Positions 10,184 to 42,756 of a stretch of 64,000 nt of DNA are shown here, piece by piece; position 1 is the first letter of the stretch; every line of letters begins with the position of its first letter. The notes under the pieces are model-generated. The model had not been told where the DNA came from. It did no database searches and saw only the letters and a program-made list of their open reading frames with translations. This stretch comes from a phage. The position numbers and the translations under genes are program-made. The stretch lies in the NCBI GenBank assembly GCA_027337125.1, contig GCA_027337125.1_3057.1, one strand, 5' to 3'.

Positions 10184-12880
10184 ATGAAAGAATTTTATAT
10201 CTCTATTGAAACAGTCGGAAATAACATTGTTGAACGTTATATTGATGAAAACGGAAAGGAACGTACTCGTGAAGTAGAATATCTTCCGACTATGTTTAGG
10301 CATTGTAAGGAAGAGTCAAAATACAAAGACATCTATGGTAAAAACTGTGCTCCTCAAAAATTTCCATCAATGAAAGATGCTCGAGATTGGATGAAGCGAA
10401 TGGAAGACATCGGTCTCGAAGCTCTCGGTATGAACGATTTTAAACTCGCTTATATCAGTGATACATATGGTTCAGAAATTGTTTATGACCGAAAATTTGT
10501 TCGTGTAGCTAACTGTGACATTGAGGTTACTGGTGATAAATTTCCTGACCCAATGAAAGCAGAATATGAAATTGATGCTATCACTCATTATGATTCAATT
10601 GACGATCGTTTTTATGTTTTCGACCTTTTGAATTCAATGTATGGTTCAGTATCAAAATGGGATGCAAAGTTAGCTGCTAAGCTTGACTGTGAAGGTGGTG
10701 ATGAAGTTCCTCAAGAAATTCTTGACCGAGTAATTTATATGCCATTTGATAATGAGCGTGATATGCTCATGGAATATATCAATCTCTGGGAACAGAAACG
10801 ACCTGCTATTTTTACTGGTTGGAATATTGAGGGATTTGACGTTCCGTATATCATGAATCGCGTTAAAATGGTTCTCGGTGAACGTAGTATGAAACGTTTC
10901 TCTCCAATCGGTCGAGTAAAATCTAAACTAATTCAAAATGTGTACGGTAGCAAAGAAATTTATTCTATTGATGGCGTATCTATTCTTGATTATTTAGATT
11001 TGTATAAGAAATTCGCATTTACTAATTTACCGTCATTCTCTTTGGAATCAGTTGCTCAACATGAAACCAAAAAAGGTAAATTACCGTACGACGGTCCTAT
11101 TAATAAACTTCGTGAGACTAATCATCAACGATACATTAGTTATAACATCATTGACGTAGAATCAGTTCAAGCAATTGATAAAATTCGTGGGTTTATCGAT
11201 CTAGTTTTAAGTATGTCTTATTATGCTAAAATGCCTTTTTCTGGTGTAATGAGTCCTATTAAAACTTGGGATGCTATTATTTTTAACTCGTTGAAAGGTG
11301 AACATAAGGTTATTCCTCAACAAGGTTCGCACGTTAAACAGAGTTTTCCGGGTGCATTTGTGTTTGAACCTAAACCAATTGCTCGTCGATATATTATGAG
11401 TTTTGACTTGACGTCTCTGTATCCGAGTATTATTCGTCAGGTTAACATTAGTCCTGAGACTATTCGTGGGCAGTTTAAAGTTCATCCAATTCATGAATAT
11501 ATTGCAGGAACAGCTCCTAAACCGAGTGATGAATATTCTTGTTCTCCGAATGGATGGATGTATGATAAGCATCAAGAAGGTATCATTCCAAAGGAAATCG
11601 CTAAAGTATTTTTCCAGCGTAAAGACTGGAAAAAGAAAATGTTCGCTGAAGAAATGAATGCCGAAGCTATTAAAAAGATTATTATGAAAGGCGCAGGGTC
11701 TTGTTCAACTAAACCTGAAGTTGAACGATATGTTAAGTTCAGTGATGATTTCTTAAATGAACTATCGAATTACACCGAATCCGTTCTCAATAGTCTGATT
11801 GAAGAATGTGAAAAAGCAGCTACACTTGCTAACACAAATCAACTTAACCGTAAAATTCTTATTAACAGTCTTTATGGTGCTCTTGGTAATATTCATTTCC
11901 GTTACTATGATTTGCGAAATGCTACTGCTATCACAATTTTCGGCCAAGTCGGTATTCAGTGGATTGCTCGTAAAATTAATGAATATCTGAATAAAGTATG
12001 CGGAACTAATGGTGAAGATTTCATCGCAGCAGGTGATACTGATTCGGTATATGTTTGCGTAGATAAAGTTATTGAAAAAGTTGGTCTTGACCGATTCAAA
12101 GAGCAGAACGATTTAGTTGAATTCATGAATCAGTTCGGTAAGAAAAAGATGGAACCTATGATTGATGTTGCATATCGTGAGTTATGTGATTATATGAATA
12201 ACCGCGAGCATCTGATGCATATGGACCGTGAAGCTATTTCTTGCCCTCCACTTGGTTCAAAGGGCGTAGGTGGATTTTGGAAAGCGAAAAAGCGTTATGC
12301 TCTGAACGTTTATGATATGGAAGATAAGCGATTTGCTGAACCGCATCTAAAAATCATGGGTATGGAAACTCAGCAGAGTTCAACACCAAAAGCAGTGCAA
12401 GAAGCTCTCGAAGAAAGTATTCGTCGTATTCTTCAGGAAGGTGAAGAGTCTGTCCAAGAATACTACAAGAACTTCGAGAAAGAATATCGTCAACTTGACT
12501 ATAAAGTTATTGCTGAAGTAAAAACTGCGAACGATATAGCGAAATATGATGATAAAGGTTGGCCAGGATTTAAATGCCCGTTCCATATTCGCGGTGTGCT
12601 AACTTATCGTCGAGCTGTTAGTGGTCTAGGTGTAGCTCCAATTTTGGATGGAAATAAGGTAATGGTTCTTCCATTACGTGAAGGAAATCCATTTGGTGAT
12701 AAGTGCATTGCTTGGCCATCGGGTACAGAACTTCCAAAAGAAATTCGTTCTGATGTGCTATCTTGGATTGACCACTCAACTTTGTTCCAAAAATCGTTTG
12801 TTAAACCGCTTGCAGGTATGTGTGAATCGGCTGGCATGGACTATGAAGAAAAAGCTTCGTTAGACTTCCTGTTTGGCTGA
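10184..12880 (+). CDS. 43: gp43, family B DNA polymerase with 3'-5' exonuclease
   Basis: 898 aa; exo motif NCDIEV, polymerase motifs SLYG and GDTDS. Confidence 0.95.
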   Translation: MKEFYISIETVGNNIVERYIDENGKERTREVEYLPTMFRHCKEESKYKDIYGKNCAPQKFPSMKDARDWMKRMEDIGLEALGMNDFKLAYISDTYGSEIVYDRKFVRVANCDIEVTGDKFPDPMKAEYEIDAITHYDSIDDRFYVFDLLNSMYGSVSKWDAKLAAKLDCEGGDEVPQEILDRVIYMPFDNERDMLMEYINLWEQKRPAIFTGWNIEGFDVPYIMNRVKMVLGERSMKRFSPIGRVKSKLIQNVYGSKEIYSIDGVSILDYLDLYKKFAFTNLPSFSLESVAQHETKKGKLPYDGPINKLRETNHQRYISYNIIDVESVQAIDKIRGFIDLVLSMSYYAKMPFSGVMSPIKTWDAIIFNSLKGEHKVIPQQGSHVKQSFPGAFVFEPKPIARRYIMSFDLTSLYPSIIRQVNISPETIRGQFKVHPIHEYIAGTAPKPSDEYSCSPNGWMYDKHQEGIIPKEIAKVFFQRKDWKKKMFAEEMNAEAIKKIIMKGAGSCSTKPEVERYVKFSDDFLNELSNYTESVLNSLIEECEKAATLANTNQLNRKILINSLYGALGNIHFRYYDLRNATAITIFGQVGIQWIARKINEYLNKVCGTNGEDFIAAGDTDSVYVCVDKVIEKVGLDRFKEQNDLVEFMNQFGKKKMEPMIDVAYRELCDYMNNREHLMHMDREAISCPPLGSKGVGGFWKAKKRYALNVYDMEDKRFAEPHLKIMGMETQQSSTPKAVQEALEESIRRILQEGEESVQEYYKNFEKEYRQLDYKVIAEVKTANDIAKYDDKGWPGFKCPFHIRGVLTYRRAVSGLGVAPILDGNKVMVLPLREGNPFGDKCIAWPSGTELPKEIRSDVLSWIDHSTLFQKSFVKPLAGMCESAGMDYEEKASLDFLFG

Positions 12881-12893
12881 TAGAATAAATCTA

Positions 12894-12914
12894 GGGACCT
12901 CCAGGTCCCTTTTT
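12894..12914 (+). terminator. intrinsic terminator (GGGACCU-cc-AGGUCCC plus T-run) after gene 43
   Basis: 7 bp perfect stem followed by TTTTT. Confidence 0.7.
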
Positions 12915-12997
12915 CATACAAGTAATATAAATCTATACTTATGAAAAAGAGATGATTCTGGACCCTTTGGATTCCCTAAAAATTTTTTCACAAAACT

Positions 12998-13027
12998 GTT
13001 TACATCCCTGTTCTTCTATGGTACTAT
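12998..13027 (+). promoter_or_regulatory. early sigma70-type promoter (GTTTACA -35, TACTAT -10), cassette copy 1
   Basis: T4 early promoter consensus; 18 bp spacing; A/T-rich upstream element. Confidence 0.6.
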
Positions 13028-13052
13028 ACAACTATCAACTACTGATACGGAT

Positions 13053-13301
13053 TTGGAGAATGAAATGAAAATTGTTATGGGATGCTTAGCAGTTTGTTTA
13101 GTTGCATTAGCAGCAGTTCCATTTGTTAGTGTTGAAAATGATACCCAACCTGTGATTGAATCTAGCACTGTTATTCACACTAATGGTAAAATATCAGTTA
13201 AAATTGATGATAATCTTCATGTGAATACAAATGGATCTTTAGGTGTGCAAATAGGTAATACCTGCATAAGCACTATTGGAGTAATTACTACTTGCATTTG
13301 A
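13053..13301 (+). CDS. predicted secreted or membrane-anchored small protein (82 aa)
   Basis: Hydrophobic N-terminal signal-like segment CLAVCLVALAAVPFV; downstream of an early promoter. Confidence 0.5.
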   Translation: MENEMKIVMGCLAVCLVALAAVPFVSVENDTQPVIESSTVIHTNGKISVKIDDNLHVNTNGSLGVQIGNTCISTIGVITTCI

Positions 13302-13311
13302 GGAAATTATT

Positions 13312-13692
13312 ATGAAAATCGCTATTTTGGTTATTGCATTAGGTCTTACTGGTTGTGTAGCTCAAGGACCGGTAGTAAATCAGTCTGATGTAGGAAAAAT
13401 TGTAAACTGTTCAAGCAAGTTTTATAATCCTAATGTCAAGTGTTATAAAGAAGCTCCAAAACAGACAGTAGAACAAATGCAGGCGAATTTTGACGAAGCT
13501 ATTCGTCCAGATGAATCTGCCCAAGCATATCGTAATTCAGATGTGATTACACGTGAAGAAAAAATTGAAAACTACTGTGCTGAACTTTGGGCAAATTGGG
13601 CTAATAATTACCAATGGCGTACCGGTAAAAATGCTCCGATGGAGTATGTAGTAAATTCTTATAATTCATGCGTAAAAAATTTGACTAAGTGA
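13312..13692 (+). CDS. predicted lipoprotein (126 aa)
   Basis: N-terminal signal peptide with lipobox LTGC; Cys followed by VAQ, suggesting outer-membrane sorting. Confidence 0.55.
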   Translation: MKIAILVIALGLTGCVAQGPVVNQSDVGKIVNCSSKFYNPNVKCYKEAPKQTVEQMQANFDEAIRPDESAQAYRNSDVITREEKIENYCAELWANWANNYQWRTGKNAPMEYVVNSYNSCVKNLTK

Positions 13693-13699
13693 GGAAAAT

Positions 13700-13951
13700 A
13701 TGGAAACTTTAGTAGCAGGTTCAATTTTTATGGTTTTAGTTTCAGGTGTGTTGGCTATTATTATATACATGCTTCCTTGGTTCATTGCCTTGATGCGTGG
13801 GTCAAAATCGACAGTAGGAATCTTTTTTACATCTTTACTGTTTAACTGGTCAATCATTGGTTGGTTTATTACATTTATTTGGTCAATTGCGGGTGAAACT
13901 AAAAAGTCAACACAGCCAAATCAAGTAATTATCATCAGAGAGAAGGAATGA
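13700..13951 (+). CDS. imm: Imm, membrane superinfection-immunity protein
   Basis: 83 aa with two hydrophobic transmembrane segments; lies between genes 43 and 42 as in T4. Confidence 0.75.
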   Translation: METLVAGSIFMVLVSGVLAIIIYMLPWFIALMRGSKSTVGIFFTSLLFNWSIIGWFITFIWSIAGETKKSTQPNQVIIIREKE

Positions 13952-14097
13952 AAAGCAAAATTTTAGCAGTATTGCTTTTAATCTTGATGATTATAATAAG
14001 TATATACTATAGTGTAACGGTTCCTCTTATGATTCCAACTATTATTTTAGGTTGGGGTTTATTACTGTTACAAGTTAAATATGAATGTATCAATTGA
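13948..14097 (+). CDS. small hydrophobic ORF (49 aa)
   Basis: Hand-derived; ATG overlaps imm stop; highly hydrophobic. Confidence 0.3.
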   Translation: MKSKILAVLLLILMIIISIYYSVTVPLMIPTIILGWGLLLLQVKYECIN

Positions 14098-14104
14098 GGT
14101 TTAA

Positions 14105-14845
14105 ATGATTAATGATTCTTTGACAGTTGAAGAAATCCGTCTTCATTTGGGAATTGCATTAAAGGAAAAAGATTTCGTAATTGATAAAACTGGTGTTAAA
14201 ACTATTGAAATTATTGGCGCATCATTTGTAGCAGATGAACCGTTTATTTTTGGCGCTCTTAATGATGAATACATTCAGCGTGAACTTGAATGGTACAAGT
14301 CTCAAAGTCTGTTTGTTAAAGATATTCCAGGCGAAACGCCAAAGATTTGGCAACAGGTAGCATCTTCTAAAGGTGAAATTAACTCGAATTATGGTTGGGC
14401 TATCTGGTCAGAAGATAACTATGCCCAGTATGATATGTGTTTAGCTGAACTTGGTCAAAATCCTGATTCTCGCCGCGGTATCATGATTTATACTCGTCCA
14501 TCCATGCAGTTTGACTACAACAAAGATGGTATGTCAGATTTCATGTGTACGAATACAGTACAGTACCTGATTCGTGATAAGAAAGTCAATGCAGTAGTAA
14601 GCATGCGTTCAAATGACGTGGTCTTTGGATTCCGTAATGATTATGCATGGCAAAAATACGTACTAGATAAATTAGTATCTGATTTGAATGCAGGTGATTC
14701 AACTCGTCAGTATAAAGCAGGTTCCATTATATGGAATGTTGGAAGCCTTCATGTGTATTCTCGTCATTTTTATTTGGTTGACCATTGGTGGAAAACTGGC
14801 GAAACTCATATTGCGAAAAAAGATTATAACGGTGAGTGGAAATGA
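14105..14845 (+). CDS. 42: gp42, dCMP hydroxymethylase
   Basis: 246 aa; conserved position and length relative to T4 gp42. Confidence 0.85.
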   Translation: MINDSLTVEEIRLHLGIALKEKDFVIDKTGVKTIEIIGASFVADEPFIFGALNDEYIQRELEWYKSQSLFVKDIPGETPKIWQQVASSKGEINSNYGWAIWSEDNYAQYDMCLAELGQNPDSRRGIMIYTRPSMQFDYNKDGMSDFMCTNTVQYLIRDKKVNAVVSMRSNDVVFGFRNDYAWQKYVLDKLVSDLNAGDSTRQYKAGSIIWNVGSLHVYSRHFYLVDHWWKTGETHIAKKDYNGEWK

Positions 14846-15684
14846 TTCAATTCGTAATTCCAAGCTATCAACGTGTAGGGGCAGTTTCTGCCCTTGATAT
14901 GTTTCCGACTGATTATGAACCTCATATTGTAGTACGTAAACACGAAGAAAAAGCTTATTATGACGCTTATGGGTCTAGAGCTAAAATTATAACTATTCCT
15001 GATGATGTTAATGGAATTGCTGGAACTCGTAAAGCAATTACTGATATGTATGCAGGTCAACGAATCTGGATGATTGACGATGATACTACGATTCGTATGA
15101 GTTCAATACGAAAGAGAGACGATAAACGGCGCGTAGATAAAATTAATCAATTAACTCGTGAACAGTTCTATGAATTGATTCAATACGTTGAAGATGCCAT
15201 GGATTGCGGGTATTATCATGGCCATGCTCGTCTACCAATTTTTAAAATTACTTCATCTTGGGGTAATTATCGTGAAAACTCATATGGATTCACGAATACG
15301 TGGTATGACCTCGGAAAACTTACGACAGAACAAATTGGGTATGGAAAAATTGATTTATGCGAAGATATGTATGCATTTCTCAATTTAATTAATCAAGGTT
15401 ATCCGCATTTGGCCTTGTTCAAATATCTAGTTGTATCTGGAAAATCACACGCTCCCGGTGGGTGTAGTTCAATTCGTAGTAATTCTAAACATAATAGAGC
15501 GCTTGAGCAAATCAATAGAGAGTTTCCAGAGCAAGCTCGTTGGAAAACTTCTAATATTGAAAAACGAAAATCGTTGGGTGAAGAAGATGAACCATTAAAG
15601 GTTCTTCGCATGTGTGTTTCGCGTAAAGAAAAATCAGAAGCATTTCATAAGTTTAATGCTATTCATCCAATAGCAGTTGATTAA
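14836..15684 (+). CDS. GT-A-fold glycosyltransferase at the locus where T4 has beta-gt; possibly the T2/T6-type beta-glucosyl-HMC alpha-glucosyltransferase
   Basis: 282 aa; DxD motif (IWMIDDDTTI); no resemblance to recalled T4 beta-gt; start probably the ATG at about 14842 overlapping the gp42 stop. Confidence 0.55.
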   Translation: MEMIQFVIPSYQRVGAVSALDMFPTDYEPHIVVRKHEEKAYYDAYGSRAKIITIPDDVNGIAGTRKAITDMYAGQRIWMIDDDTTIRMSSIRKRDDKRRVDKINQLTREQFYELIQYVEDAMDCGYYHGHARLPIFKITSSWGNYRENSYGFTNTWYDLGKLTTEQIGYGKIDLCEDMYAFLNLINQGYPHLALFKYLVVSGKSHAPGGCSSIRSNSKHNRALEQINREFPEQARWKTSNIEKRKSLGEEDEPLKVLRMCVSRKEKSEAFHKFNAIHPIAVD

Positions 15685-19583: not shown

Positions 19584-19877
19584 ATGAAAAAATTTGTTTT
19601 TGCTGCAATTTTTGCTTTGGCTTCTTGTGCTGCTCAGCCTGCTATGGCGGGTTATGATAAAGATTTGTGCGAATGGTCTATGACTGCAGATCAGACTGAG
19701 GTTGAAACTCAGATTGAAGCAGATATTATGAATATCGTTGAACGTGATCGCCCTGAAATGAAAGCTGAAGTACAAAAACAGCTTAAGTCTGGTGGTGTAA
19801 TGCAGTATAATTACGTTCTGTATTGTGATAAAAACTTCAATAATAAAAATATCATCGCTGAAGTAGTAGGTGAATAA
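19584..19877 (+). CDS. sp: Sp (spackle), periplasmic superinfection-exclusion protein
   Basis: 97 aa with N-terminal signal peptide; matches recalled T4 Sp length and position. Confidence 0.8.
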   Translation: MKKFVFAAIFALASCAAQPAMAGYDKDLCEWSMTADQTEVETQIEADIMNIVERDRPEMKAEVQKQLKSGGVMQYNYVLYCDKNFNNKNIIAEVVGE

Positions 19878-25836: not shown

Positions 25837-26460
25837 ATGATTATTAATCTTGCAGATGTTGAACAGTTATCTATAAAAGCTGAAAGCGTTGATTTTCAAT
25901 ATGATATGTATAAAAAGGTCTGTGAAAAATTTACTGACTTTGAACAGTCAATTCTTTGGCAATGTATGGAAGCCAAAAAGAATGAAGCTCTTCATCGGCA
26001 GTTGAATAAAATCATTAAAAAGCATTTAACTAAATCACCTTATCAGCTATATCGTGGTATATCAAAATCGACAAAAGAACTCATTAAAGATTTACAAGTC
26101 GGAGAAGTGTTTTCAACGAACAGAGTAGATTCATTTACTACTAGTTTGCACACAGCGTGTTCTTTTTCTTATGCTGAATATTTTACTGAAACAATACTTC
26201 GCTTAAAAACTGATAAAGCTTTTAATTACTCTGACCATATCAGCGATATTATACTTTCTTCTCCTAATACTGAGTTTAAGTATACATATGAAGATACTGA
26301 TGGATTAGATTCAGAACGTACTGATAACTTAATGATGATTGTGCGTGAACAAGAATGGATGATTCCAATTGGAAAGTATAAAATAACTTCTATTTCAAAA
26401 GAAAAATTACATGATTCATTTGGAACATTTAAAGTGTATGATATTGAGGTAGTTGAATGA
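25837..26460 (+). CDS. modB: ModB, ADP-ribosyltransferase
   Basis: 207 aa; R-S-EXE ART motifs (LYRG, STN, EQEWMIP); order modB-modA-srd as in T4. Confidence 0.75.
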   Translation: MIINLADVEQLSIKAESVDFQYDMYKKVCEKFTDFEQSILWQCMEAKKNEALHRQLNKIIKKHLTKSPYQLYRGISKSTKELIKDLQVGEVFSTNRVDSFTTSLHTACSFSYAEYFTETILRLKTDKAFNYSDHISDIILSSPNTEFKYTYEDTDGLDSERTDNLMMIVREQEWMIPIGKYKITSISKEKLHDSFGTFKVYDIEVVE

Positions 26461-33982: not shown

Positions 33983-34247
33983 AATTATGAAATATATTAA
34001 TCGTTCTATCGCAGCATTAGTATTAGCAGTGTCTTTAGCAGGATGTACTGATGCTGATAATGCAACCAAAGTTTTGTCTTCAAGTGGTTTTACTAATATT
34101 GAAATCACTGGATACAATTGGTTCGGTTGCTCTGAAAATGATTTCCAACATACTGGATTTCGCGCTATTGGACCTACCGGACAGAAAGTAGAAGGAACCG
34201 TATGTTCTGGTCTATTCTTCAAGGATTCGACTATCCGTTTTAAATAA
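33975..34247 (+). CDS. predicted lipoprotein (about 85-90 aa)
   Basis: Signal peptide with lipobox LAGC (MKYINRSIAALVLAVSLAGCTD). Confidence 0.5.
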   Translation: MSEIMKYINRSIAALVLAVSLAGCTDADNATKVLSSSGFTNIEITGYNWFGCSENDFQHTGFRAIGPTGQKVEGTVCSGLFFKDSTIRFK

Positions 34248-42597: not shown

Positions 42598-42756
42598 ATG
42601 AATATCGCAAAATTATTAGGAGTTATTTCATTTATTTGTTGGATAGTAGCATGTGTTTTAACTATCTGTATTGATGCCAGCAGTGTGTTTTCACAAGCTT
42701 TAGCCCAGGGTATGTGTGCATATTTAACATTTGTGTTGTTATCTACTAATGATTAA
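42598..42756 (+). CDS. Ac-like small membrane protein, paralog (52 aa)
   Basis: Track ORF 42568-42756; ATG at 42598 after GAGGAGAA RBS; shares S-VF-QA-AQG motif with ORF 42432. Confidence 0.45.
   Translation: MNIAKLLGVISFICWIVACVLTICIDASSVFSQALAQGMCAYLTFVLLSTND

Follow-up and report, generated by a model that had tools for sequence, protein, structure and literature searches.

Imm.1, a conserved predicted lipoprotein encoded beside imm in T-even phages, as a candidate accessory factor in superinfection exclusion

Introduction

The two exclusion proteins described for phage T4 are early proteins of the cell envelope, Imm being integral to the inner membrane and Spackle soluble in the periplasm. 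The mechanism of Imm is being resolved only now: a 2026 preprint shows that the helical-bundle domain of gp29, the T4 tape measure protein, is bound by Imm and that the Imm mutants W50A and R33A are inactive; it likens Imm to colicin immunity proteins and HK97 gp15, and mentions neither Imm.1 nor any lipoprotein nor Spackle (bioRxiv 10.64898/2026.03.06.709160). The target of Spackle, in the periplasm, is the gp5 lysozyme, which it inhibits (PMC7677548). Here we analyze a 64,000-nucleotide stretch of phage DNA (GCA_027337125.1, contig GCA_027337125.1_3057.1; hereafter the window), from a T4-like phage (Tequatrovirus), with a focus on imm.1, the gene directly upstream of imm. The product of imm.1 shares early timing and an envelope location with Imm and Spackle but is a predicted lipoprotein, unrelated in sequence to both.

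T5 Llp and the Cor-type lipoproteins have in common with Imm.1 that it too is a small phage-encoded, predicted outer-membrane lipoprotein, encoded behind an early-type promoter in a superinfection-excluding phage, but no similarity of sequence or fold between them was detected. Ltp of the Streptococcus phage TP-J34 is an exclusion lipoprotein reported to target the tape measure protein. As predicted for Imm.1, it is lipid-anchored, mainly helical and extracytoplasmic, with a proposed action at DNA entry rather than at adsorption, but it comes from a temperate phage of a Gram-positive host, has a different fold, and shows no homology to Imm.1 detectable by Foldseek or profile searches of the PDB. 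Imm.1 would join Llp, Cor and Ltp among the phage exclusion lipoproteins, sharing with them only a predicted lipid anchor and a phage context. Two-component spanins likewise pair adjacent genes for an inner-membrane protein and a predicted outer-membrane lipoprotein. A spanin reading of imm.1 and imm was rejected, as the pair belongs to the early operon that separates genes 43 and 42 rather than to a lysis cassette, and Imm, nearly all of which is membrane-embedded, lacks an extended periplasmic domain. The mature part of an o-spanin is short and proline-rich, whereas that of Imm.1 has 111 residues and is not visibly proline-rich; in Kosakonia phage 305, which has an Imm.1-family protein, the annotation places Rz-like spanin genes elsewhere in the genome.

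imm.1 is an already known gene of uncharacterized function. We propose, with a probability of about 0.5, that Imm.1 is a periplasmic, exclusion-related accessory factor acting beside Imm, a hypothesis on a classic phenomenon that is drawn wholly from comparative genomics.

Results

Identity and export signal of Imm.1

The window contains an early operon of T-even type, that of the 43-42 interval. Four open reading frames (ORFs) lie on the + strand between gene 43 (gp43 DNA polymerase, ORF 10184-12880) and gene 42, where the initial annotation had placed them, with imm in their middle (Table 1). The interval (12881-14104, 1224 bp) is 97-98% identical to that of many Tequatrovirus genomes and has matches in 536 phage records.

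The ORF directly before imm is the imm.1 gene of T4 (T4p046), found at the same genome position with 99% identity. It matches DUF5481 (PF17578) at 5.4e-72 and 239 bits, against a cut-off of 27, and phrog_1754 at 5e-44. Nothing material distinguishes it from T4 Imm.1, from which it differs by T13A inside the lipobox (L-A-G-C in T4) and by one extra C-terminal residue; among T2, T4, T6 and the window phage, one or two residues of the protein differ. Its database names are misleading. The T4 RefSeq label is 'iduronate sulfatase' (NC_000866.4 26636-27013), a name also carried by the ECO4, HP3, GEP001 and second T4 records, and other records call the product 'immunity' or 'immunity protein', 'putative membrane protein' or 'putative 14.1 kDa protein'. 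Profile searches lend no support to 'iduronate sulfatase' or 'immunity protein', and no test was found behind any of the database names.

The protein begins with MKIAILVIALGLTGC|VAQ, in which K2 and the uncharged hydrophobic stretch IAILVIALGL precede the lipobox L-T-G-C, with the cysteine at position 15 and Val at +2. We compared this N-terminus with a PROSITE PS51257-type lipoprotein rule that calls for Lys or Arg in the first 7 residues, at least 6 uncharged hydrophobic residues, and the motif [LVI][ASTVI][GAS]-C with its Cys at 15-35. Imm.1 has the charge, the hydrophobic stretch and the lipobox. Of the 1128 start/ORF combinations of the 64-kb window, the lipobox pattern picks out only 4 real ORF loci and one spurious ORF on the minus strand. 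The lipoprotein signal claimed for this ORF at the outset, an LTGC lipobox without Asp at +2, is present, and it is kept across the family: all but one of ~19 distinct Imm.1-family sequences retain a lipobox of the form L/T-A/T/S/V-G-C. (These are T2, T4, T6, Mosigvirus MM02/P0006, P0004, the metagenomic P0005, P0007, P0022, P0027, P0031 and P0033-P0036, S16 gp27/P0032, Klebsiella pKp20_039, SP18_045, Bp7_090 and Kosakonia 305 gp055.) The exception is P0004, in which Phe replaces the cysteine and is followed by a signal peptidase I-type site, AHA|S, so that this member would still be exported, as a soluble protein.

Under the '+2 rule' of the E. coli Lol system, a lipoprotein without Asp at the position after the lipidated cysteine is sorted to the outer membrane. 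That position is Val in the window protein and V, G, A, S or Q in its relatives, never D. Imm.1 is thus predicted to be lipidated and sorted to the outer membrane. The cysteines of the mature part agree with export. When 9 sequences, 18-44% identical to Imm.1, are aligned, no column is free of variation except K2, C89, C120 and the lipobox Gly at -1, while C32 and C44 are either both present (Tequatrovirus, P0004) or both absent. Conserved pairs of this kind fit disulfides and therefore the periplasm.

imm.1 and imm remain neighbors across gene orders

Linkage was read from a local hidden Markov model (HMM) scan of the fetched loci and from the called genes of metagenomic contigs. In six genera and six metagenomic lineages, imm has an Imm.1-family lipoprotein gene as its direct neighbor or separated from it by one small ORF, and this holds for every sampled lineage that has both genes. 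Five arrangements were found. In Tequatrovirus and at loci L018 and L021, gene 43 is followed by an optional ORF, imm.1, imm, the 49-aa ORF and gene 42; in S16, pKp20 and L020 the order is gene 43, lipoprotein, imm and gene 42. The order of lipoprotein and imm is reversed in SP18, Bp7 and L031-L033, where gene 43, imm and a 45-47-aa homolog of the 49-aa ORF precede the lipoprotein gene, and at L029 and L030, where gene 43 and imm are followed by a lipoprotein gene with a 4-nt overlap. Finally, in Mosigvirus imm.1, imm and sp lie between genes 41 and 61, outside the 43-42 interval. The adjacency of imm.1 and imm survives two gene orders and two genome positions, and because the neighborhood is conserved through these changes, a functional link between Imm.1 and Imm is supported.

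The Mosigvirus locus also retains the upstream leader. Ahead of the relocated imm.1 homolog, Mosigvirus MM02 has CTGTTTACA-N-TGTTACTATC...CTATCAACTAC where the window has CTGTTTACA-N-TGGTACTATA...CTATCAACTAC, and the MM02 site homologous to the window promoter reads CTGTTTACA...TGTTACTAT...CTATCAACTAC. From these sequences, a cassette of promoter, imm.1 and imm appears to have moved as a unit in Mosigvirus, landing directly upstream of the spackle gene.

Record counts and substitution patterns treat the two genes alike. imm.1 is found in 657 cultured-phage records, 502 of them at ≥95% identity (the Tequatrovirus band) and 155 at ~33%, all those listed in the latter group being Mosigvirus-type coliphages; imm, at ≥60% identity, is found in 658 (502 + 156). 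Against other Tequatroviruses, the ratio of nonsynonymous to synonymous substitution (dN/dS) is 0.00-0.03 for imm.1 and 0.03-0.07 for imm, so that Imm.1 is under strong purifying selection, as tight as that on imm. The 78-aa ORF has 0.2-0.4 (0.25-0.28 for its mature part), and the 49-aa ORF, for which changes are few, about 0.25-0.5.

The gene imm itself was identified by a match to Imm_superinfect (PF14373) at 7.6e-16 and 58.2 bits (cut-off 27.9) and only two residues differing from T4 Imm. The T4 Imm used in bioRxiv 10.64898/2026.03.06.709160 has 94 residues, from an earlier start codon. Counting 11 codons back in frame from the imm ATG of the window leads to CAT (13667-13669), which is not a start codon, an observation made by eye and for that codon only.

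Range and architecture of the Imm.1 family

When 1.84 billion representative proteins were searched exhaustively with Imm.1, only 6 representatives came back, which makes the family a narrow one. A profile search of 5.8 billion proteins gave 18 Imm.1 clusters, none with a bacterial source name and about half with a longest contig of >150 kb; an IMG/VR scan gave only 7 Imm.1 loci, and a word-index protein search only near-identical proteins. The lipoproteins of Gelderlandvirus S16, Jiaodavirus pKp20, Gaprivervirus SP18 and Dhakavirus Bp7 are taken in by phrog_1754 (2e-15 to 1.5e-51) and are not reached by Pfam DUF5481.

Conservation is uneven along the protein. Between lineages the N part, comprising the signal, the tether motifs (G-x-V-V-x-x-S/N-D/E-V/I-G-K and Y-N-P-N-V-K-x-Y) and the first Cys motif, is 43-99% identical, whereas the C-terminal part is 15-44% identical. 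The protein is modular, and exchange of parts between lineages is clear from individual pairs: Bp7_090 and P0033 share 99% of the N part and 40% of the C part, and P0034 and P0035 share 87% and 100%, respectively. P0004 is chimeric, its N part being Tequatrovirus-like (67%) and its C part Mosigvirus-like (48%). An AlphaFold2 model built on a 5-sequence alignment has a C-terminal hairpin of helices 81-104 and 110-125, which hold C89 and C120, with a block-mean predicted local distance difference test score (pLDDT) of >90 for residues 91-126 and 87 for residues 81-90; the N half is modeled with low confidence, the pLDDT of the tether region being below 50. The single-sequence model is poor (pLDDT 60). 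Mature Imm.1 is accordingly modeled as a conserved N-terminal tether followed by a fast-evolving, exchangeable C-terminal helical hairpin, probably locked by its invariant cysteine pair.

Foldseek found no PDB match to the model at E <= 0.001 and, in BFVD, only members of the Imm.1 family. The best PDB match of the Imm.1 sequence profile was 2mct_A, an uncharacterized nuclear magnetic resonance structure, at E = 0.017, and searches of NCBIfam and PADLOC gave nothing meaningful.

The flanking ORFs and transcription signals of the interval

One promoter-like site precedes the four ORFs, as the initial annotation had it, although the assignment is a pattern match only (Table 1). Its sequence is identical in T4 and T6, and no convincing terminator was found between it and gene 42. 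Upstream of it, just beyond gene 43, lies a terminator-like hairpin at a place where the record of phage e11/2 annotates a terminator. Each of the four ORFs has its own Shine-Dalgarno sequence, and the spacing is tight: 10 nt separate the first ORF from imm.1, 7 nt imm.1 from imm, and 7 nt the 49-aa ORF from gene 42, while the start of the 49-aa ORF overlaps the imm stop codon as ATGA.

The first ORF had been described, at 13053-13301, as having a hydrophobic, signal-like N-terminus. The hydrophobic segment was found; TTG 13053 as the start, which would give 82 residues, was not retained, since ATG 13065 is preceded by GGAG at 13055-13058 and the same 237-nt coding sequence is annotated in other phages, so that the product probably has 78 residues. 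The segment is about 19-21 residues long (residues 3-21 are the 19-residue stretch of highest hydrophobicity, Kyte-Doolittle mean 2.73) and is flanked by K2 and by E24/D26; a possible A-L-A|A cleavage site is present. The product is predicted either to be secreted or to stay anchored with an outward-facing C-terminus, and its C-terminal ~55 residues, with two cysteines near the end, are probably periplasmic. A lipobox was considered for the window protein and rejected, as Cys7 and Cys11 come too early and the residue at -1 is Val. Its sequence profile found no match in the PDB.

This ORF is an optional cassette in a variable slot. The phage records that contain it number 326, compared with 657 for imm.1, and the organism names, source names and contig sizes returned for it are all those of T-even-type phages. 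In T4, window positions 13073-13311 are missing, with the junction in the 8-nt ATGAAAAT, with which the 78-aa ORF and imm.1 both start; as a result, imm.1 in T4 comes straight after the promoter and ribosome-binding site used in the window by the 78-aa ORF. T6 matches T4 in lacking the ORF. In T2 the slot holds an unrelated 83-aa ORF without a hydrophobic N-terminus (AP018813.1 24667-24918, MKNIQTNFIQNLK...), implausibly annotated as 'tail tape measure protein', and at L021 it holds an FRD3-like ORF. Comparison of the 43-imm interval among T-even genomes, as the initial annotation had envisaged, thus separates a conserved imm.1 and imm core from a variable slot before imm.1.

The slot also shows traces of rearrangement. 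In ELT1 (L008 1126-1383), P0010, P0018 and P0019, 7-aa in-frame tandem duplications of the LVALAAV type lie within the hydrophobic segment of the 78-aa ORF; the one in P0018 creates an L-A-A-C lipobox at Cys18 (its UniRef name is 'Lipoprotein'), and P0019 has in addition a DI-DI-DI expansion. In Shigella phage CT01 (L009, 909-1746) the full imm.1 comes after a truncated 5' copy of the gene, part of the 78-aa ORF and a duplicate of the promoter-leader region, which suggests recombination between repeated ATGAAAAT start regions.

The hydrophobic ORF reported after imm is present and codes for a very hydrophobic 49-residue product, T4 'Y02C', with a hydrophobic span over approximately residues 5-43 that is broken by YYSVTVP, a pattern that suggests a helical hairpin. 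The L033 homolog carries PF26865 (Phage_T4_Y02C) and matches the same local HMM. The local Pfam scan gave no PF26865 match to the window ORF, and the model may be absent from the Pfam copy used. The ORF is intact in T4 (26220-26372, MKSKIIAALLL...YECIN), where NC_000866 leaves it unannotated, and the family is found in 745 phage records of several genera, including RB69 and Kosakonia and Erwinia phages. RB69 (Mosigvirus) has the homolog RB69ORF054c in its 43-42 interval, with the annotators' note 'similar to T4 42-imm intercistronic region', and Kosakonia phage 305 has one at the same place; neither has imm within the fetched 5-kb locus.

The four ORFs had been read as one envelope-targeted module. 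That reading is partly supported. The lipoprotein signal of Imm.1 and its linkage to imm speak for its envelope part, and the unity of the four-ORF set is not supported: the core is imm.1 and imm, the 78-aa ORF is optional, and the 49-aa ORF is separable from imm.

Other features of the window

Gene 42 is overlapped by 10 nt by a gene for a TAGT-family beta-glucosyl-HMC-alpha-glucosyltransferase (14836-15684; phrog_842, 5e-88), after which comes uvsX. T4 carries beta-gt and segA where the window has the TAGT-family gene; the DNA glucosylation genes of the window phage resemble those of S16 and e11/2-type Tequatroviruses, unlike those of T4.

Spackle, which we take to be cleaved by signal peptidase I, has in the window a signal peptide with a lipobox-like A-L-A-S-C (Cys15) ahead of an AMA|GYD site. 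Its Mosigvirus homolog has A-V-S-C and that of Morganella phage Rgz1 has no Cys; the pattern may be giving a false positive here, or the motif may hint at lipidation of part of Spackle. Gp041 of Kosakonia phage 305 (L036 20144-20497), annotated 'spackle periplasmic', matches the Spackle HMM only weakly (E = 0.046) and begins with a lipobox-like L-S-A-C.

Two further ORFs of the window carry the motif. That at 33987-34247 encodes a predicted small lipoprotein of 86 residues (MKYINRSIAALVLAVSLAGC-TDAD, lipobox LAGC, phrog_902), and a 52-aa hydrophobic micro-ORF at 42598-42756 (phrog_2501), with the pattern I-V-A-C at Cys19, probably encodes a small membrane protein.

Table 1. Features of the 43-42 interval and associated genes, in window coordinates
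Feature	Position	Strand	Assignment or remarks
Terminator-like hairpin AGGGACC-TCCA-GGTCCCT + TTTTT	12893-12910	+	just 3' of gene 43 stop codon
Early-type promoter-like site TTTACA-17-TACTAT	12999-13027	+	TG before -10, A/T-rich tract upstream; pattern match only
78-aa ORF	13065-13301	+	phrog_4189, function unknown
imm.1, 126-aa predicted lipoprotein	13312-13692	+	Pfam DUF5481, phrog_1754
imm, 83-aa inner-membrane superinfection immunity protein	13700-13951	+	PF14373, phrog_1039
49-aa hydrophobic micro-ORF, T4 'Y02C'	13948-14097	+	phrog_3610 (1e-25), PF26865
gene 42 (dCMP hydroxymethylase)	14105-14845		next gene 3' of the four-ORF interval
sp (spackle)	19584-19877	+	local HMM 6e-57; other known T4 exclusion gene, elsewhere in the window

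Discussion

Several observations weigh against a role for Imm.1 in exclusion, and some of them equally favor a job in the envelope of another kind, such as envelope stabilization, lysis-inhibition sensing, counter-defense, or protection against colicins or other phages, with the adjacency to imm being mostly synteny inherited within a compact early operon. Plasmid-borne Imm alone excludes T4 and lowers its plating (bioRxiv 10.64898/2026.03.06.709160), so that Imm can act without Imm.1. In Kosakonia phage 305 (Kanagawavirus), gene 43 is immediately followed by a gene for an Imm.1-family lipoprotein (LLTGC, HMM 1e-20), the homolog of the 49-aa ORF is also present, and no imm was detected in the 135 of 175 kb examined, the stretch outside that scan being 90-130 kb, from the baseplate-wedge genes to the tail tube gene. 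Conversely, Morganella phage Rgz1 has imm and then an sp-like gene with no such lipoprotein nearby, and two non-T4-like phages, Mangalitsa and an Acinetobacter phage, have an imm homolog without a lipoprotein neighbor. T4-like gene order is generally conserved, so the adjacency is in part inherited synteny. To these points are added that Spackle also fits the lipobox pattern (ALASC), which on its own can mislead; that our literature search found no paper or experiment on Imm.1 or DUF5481; and that neither Foldseek searches of the PDB and BFVD nor profile searches of the PDB detected a similarity of fold or sequence between Imm.1 and known exclusion proteins. We regard an envelope role outside exclusion as less likely than an exclusion-related one. 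It sits poorly with a pair of genes that stays together through reordering and through relocation with its own promoter, that was set down directly upstream of sp when relocated, and whose record counts match one to one in Tequatrovirus and Mosigvirus.

Other explanations assign the role differently. Y02C could be the true partner of Imm, translational coupling ensuring matched amounts of two inner-membrane proteins, and Imm.1 a bystander. The ATGA overlap here, the 4-nt coding-sequence overlaps in SP18 and Bp7, and the wide occurrence of the Y02C family in phage records of several genera speak for such a pairing. It nevertheless strikes us as unlikely, given that the Mosigvirus imm loci L004, L016 and L017 have sp after imm and no homolog of the 49-aa ORF, that this homolog has no imm nearby in RB69 and no detected imm in Kosakonia phage 305, that it is not next to imm in S16, pKp20, L020 and L029, and that the selective constraint on the ORF is weaker. 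Imm.1 might instead resemble Llp/Cor in masking the phage's own receptor from the periplasm, which would protect the cell and save progeny from being lost to debris; a predicted outer-membrane lipoprotein behind an early-type promoter, with a small size and a putative mature-part disulfide that recall Llp, would suit this role. T2, T4 and T6, however, use different receptors (FadL/OmpF, OmpC/LPS and Tsx, respectively; LPS, lipopolysaccharide), and the near-identity of Imm.1 among them, continued at ≥95% over the 502 Tequatrovirus records, argues against an Llp-type mask, as does the lack of a PDB match at the E-values given above. Receptor blocking, which the initial annotation had considered for phage lipoproteins, is for these reasons very unlikely to be the mechanism. 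That the signal-like N-termini arose by chance in small ORFs that are not genes is suggested by the richness of AT-rich phage DNA in small ORFs and by the missing T4 RefSeq annotation of the 49-aa ORF, but all four ORFs are intact in hundreds of genomes, show coding-type substitution patterns, Shine-Dalgarno sites and tight spacing, and match PHROG or Pfam families, and this reading is effectively refuted.

If Imm.1 is an exclusion-related accessory of Imm, a division of labor can be pictured in which the tape measure protein is stopped by Imm at the inner membrane and the gp5 lysozyme by Spackle at the cell wall. With gp29 and gp5 lysozyme as the targets of these two proteins, the place of a player on the outer-membrane side is still open. 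Imm.1, on the outer-membrane side, would be accessory to the barrier against entry of a second phage genome, and might act on the incoming tail-tube tip or the tape measure protein or help Imm at entry sites. Its conserved N module would contact something invariant, either the host envelope or Imm, and its exchangeable C-terminal hairpin a partner that varies between lineages, for example the tube tip or the tape measure protein. Y02C would be a two-helix membrane micro-protein made together with Imm, and the product of the 78-aa ORF an optional exported accessory protein. A more specific version, in which Imm.1, Imm and possibly Y02C form an exclusion device spanning both membranes, with the C-terminal module recognizing the tube tip or tape measure protein and passing it to, or cooperating with, Imm, is rather doubtful; if true, the swaps of the C module would reflect an arms race over exclusion among co-infecting T-even phages.

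The analysis corrects the misleading database names of imm.1, and even if Imm.1 should prove unrelated to exclusion, it would still be among the most conserved early envelope proteins of T-even phages with no known function. Superinfection exclusion by T4 is a textbook case for which two genes, imm and sp, have been credited for 50 years, and Imm.1 is a candidate for a third component, one that could explain how genome delivery is intercepted in the periplasm and why plasmid-borne Imm may fall short of the whole phenotype.

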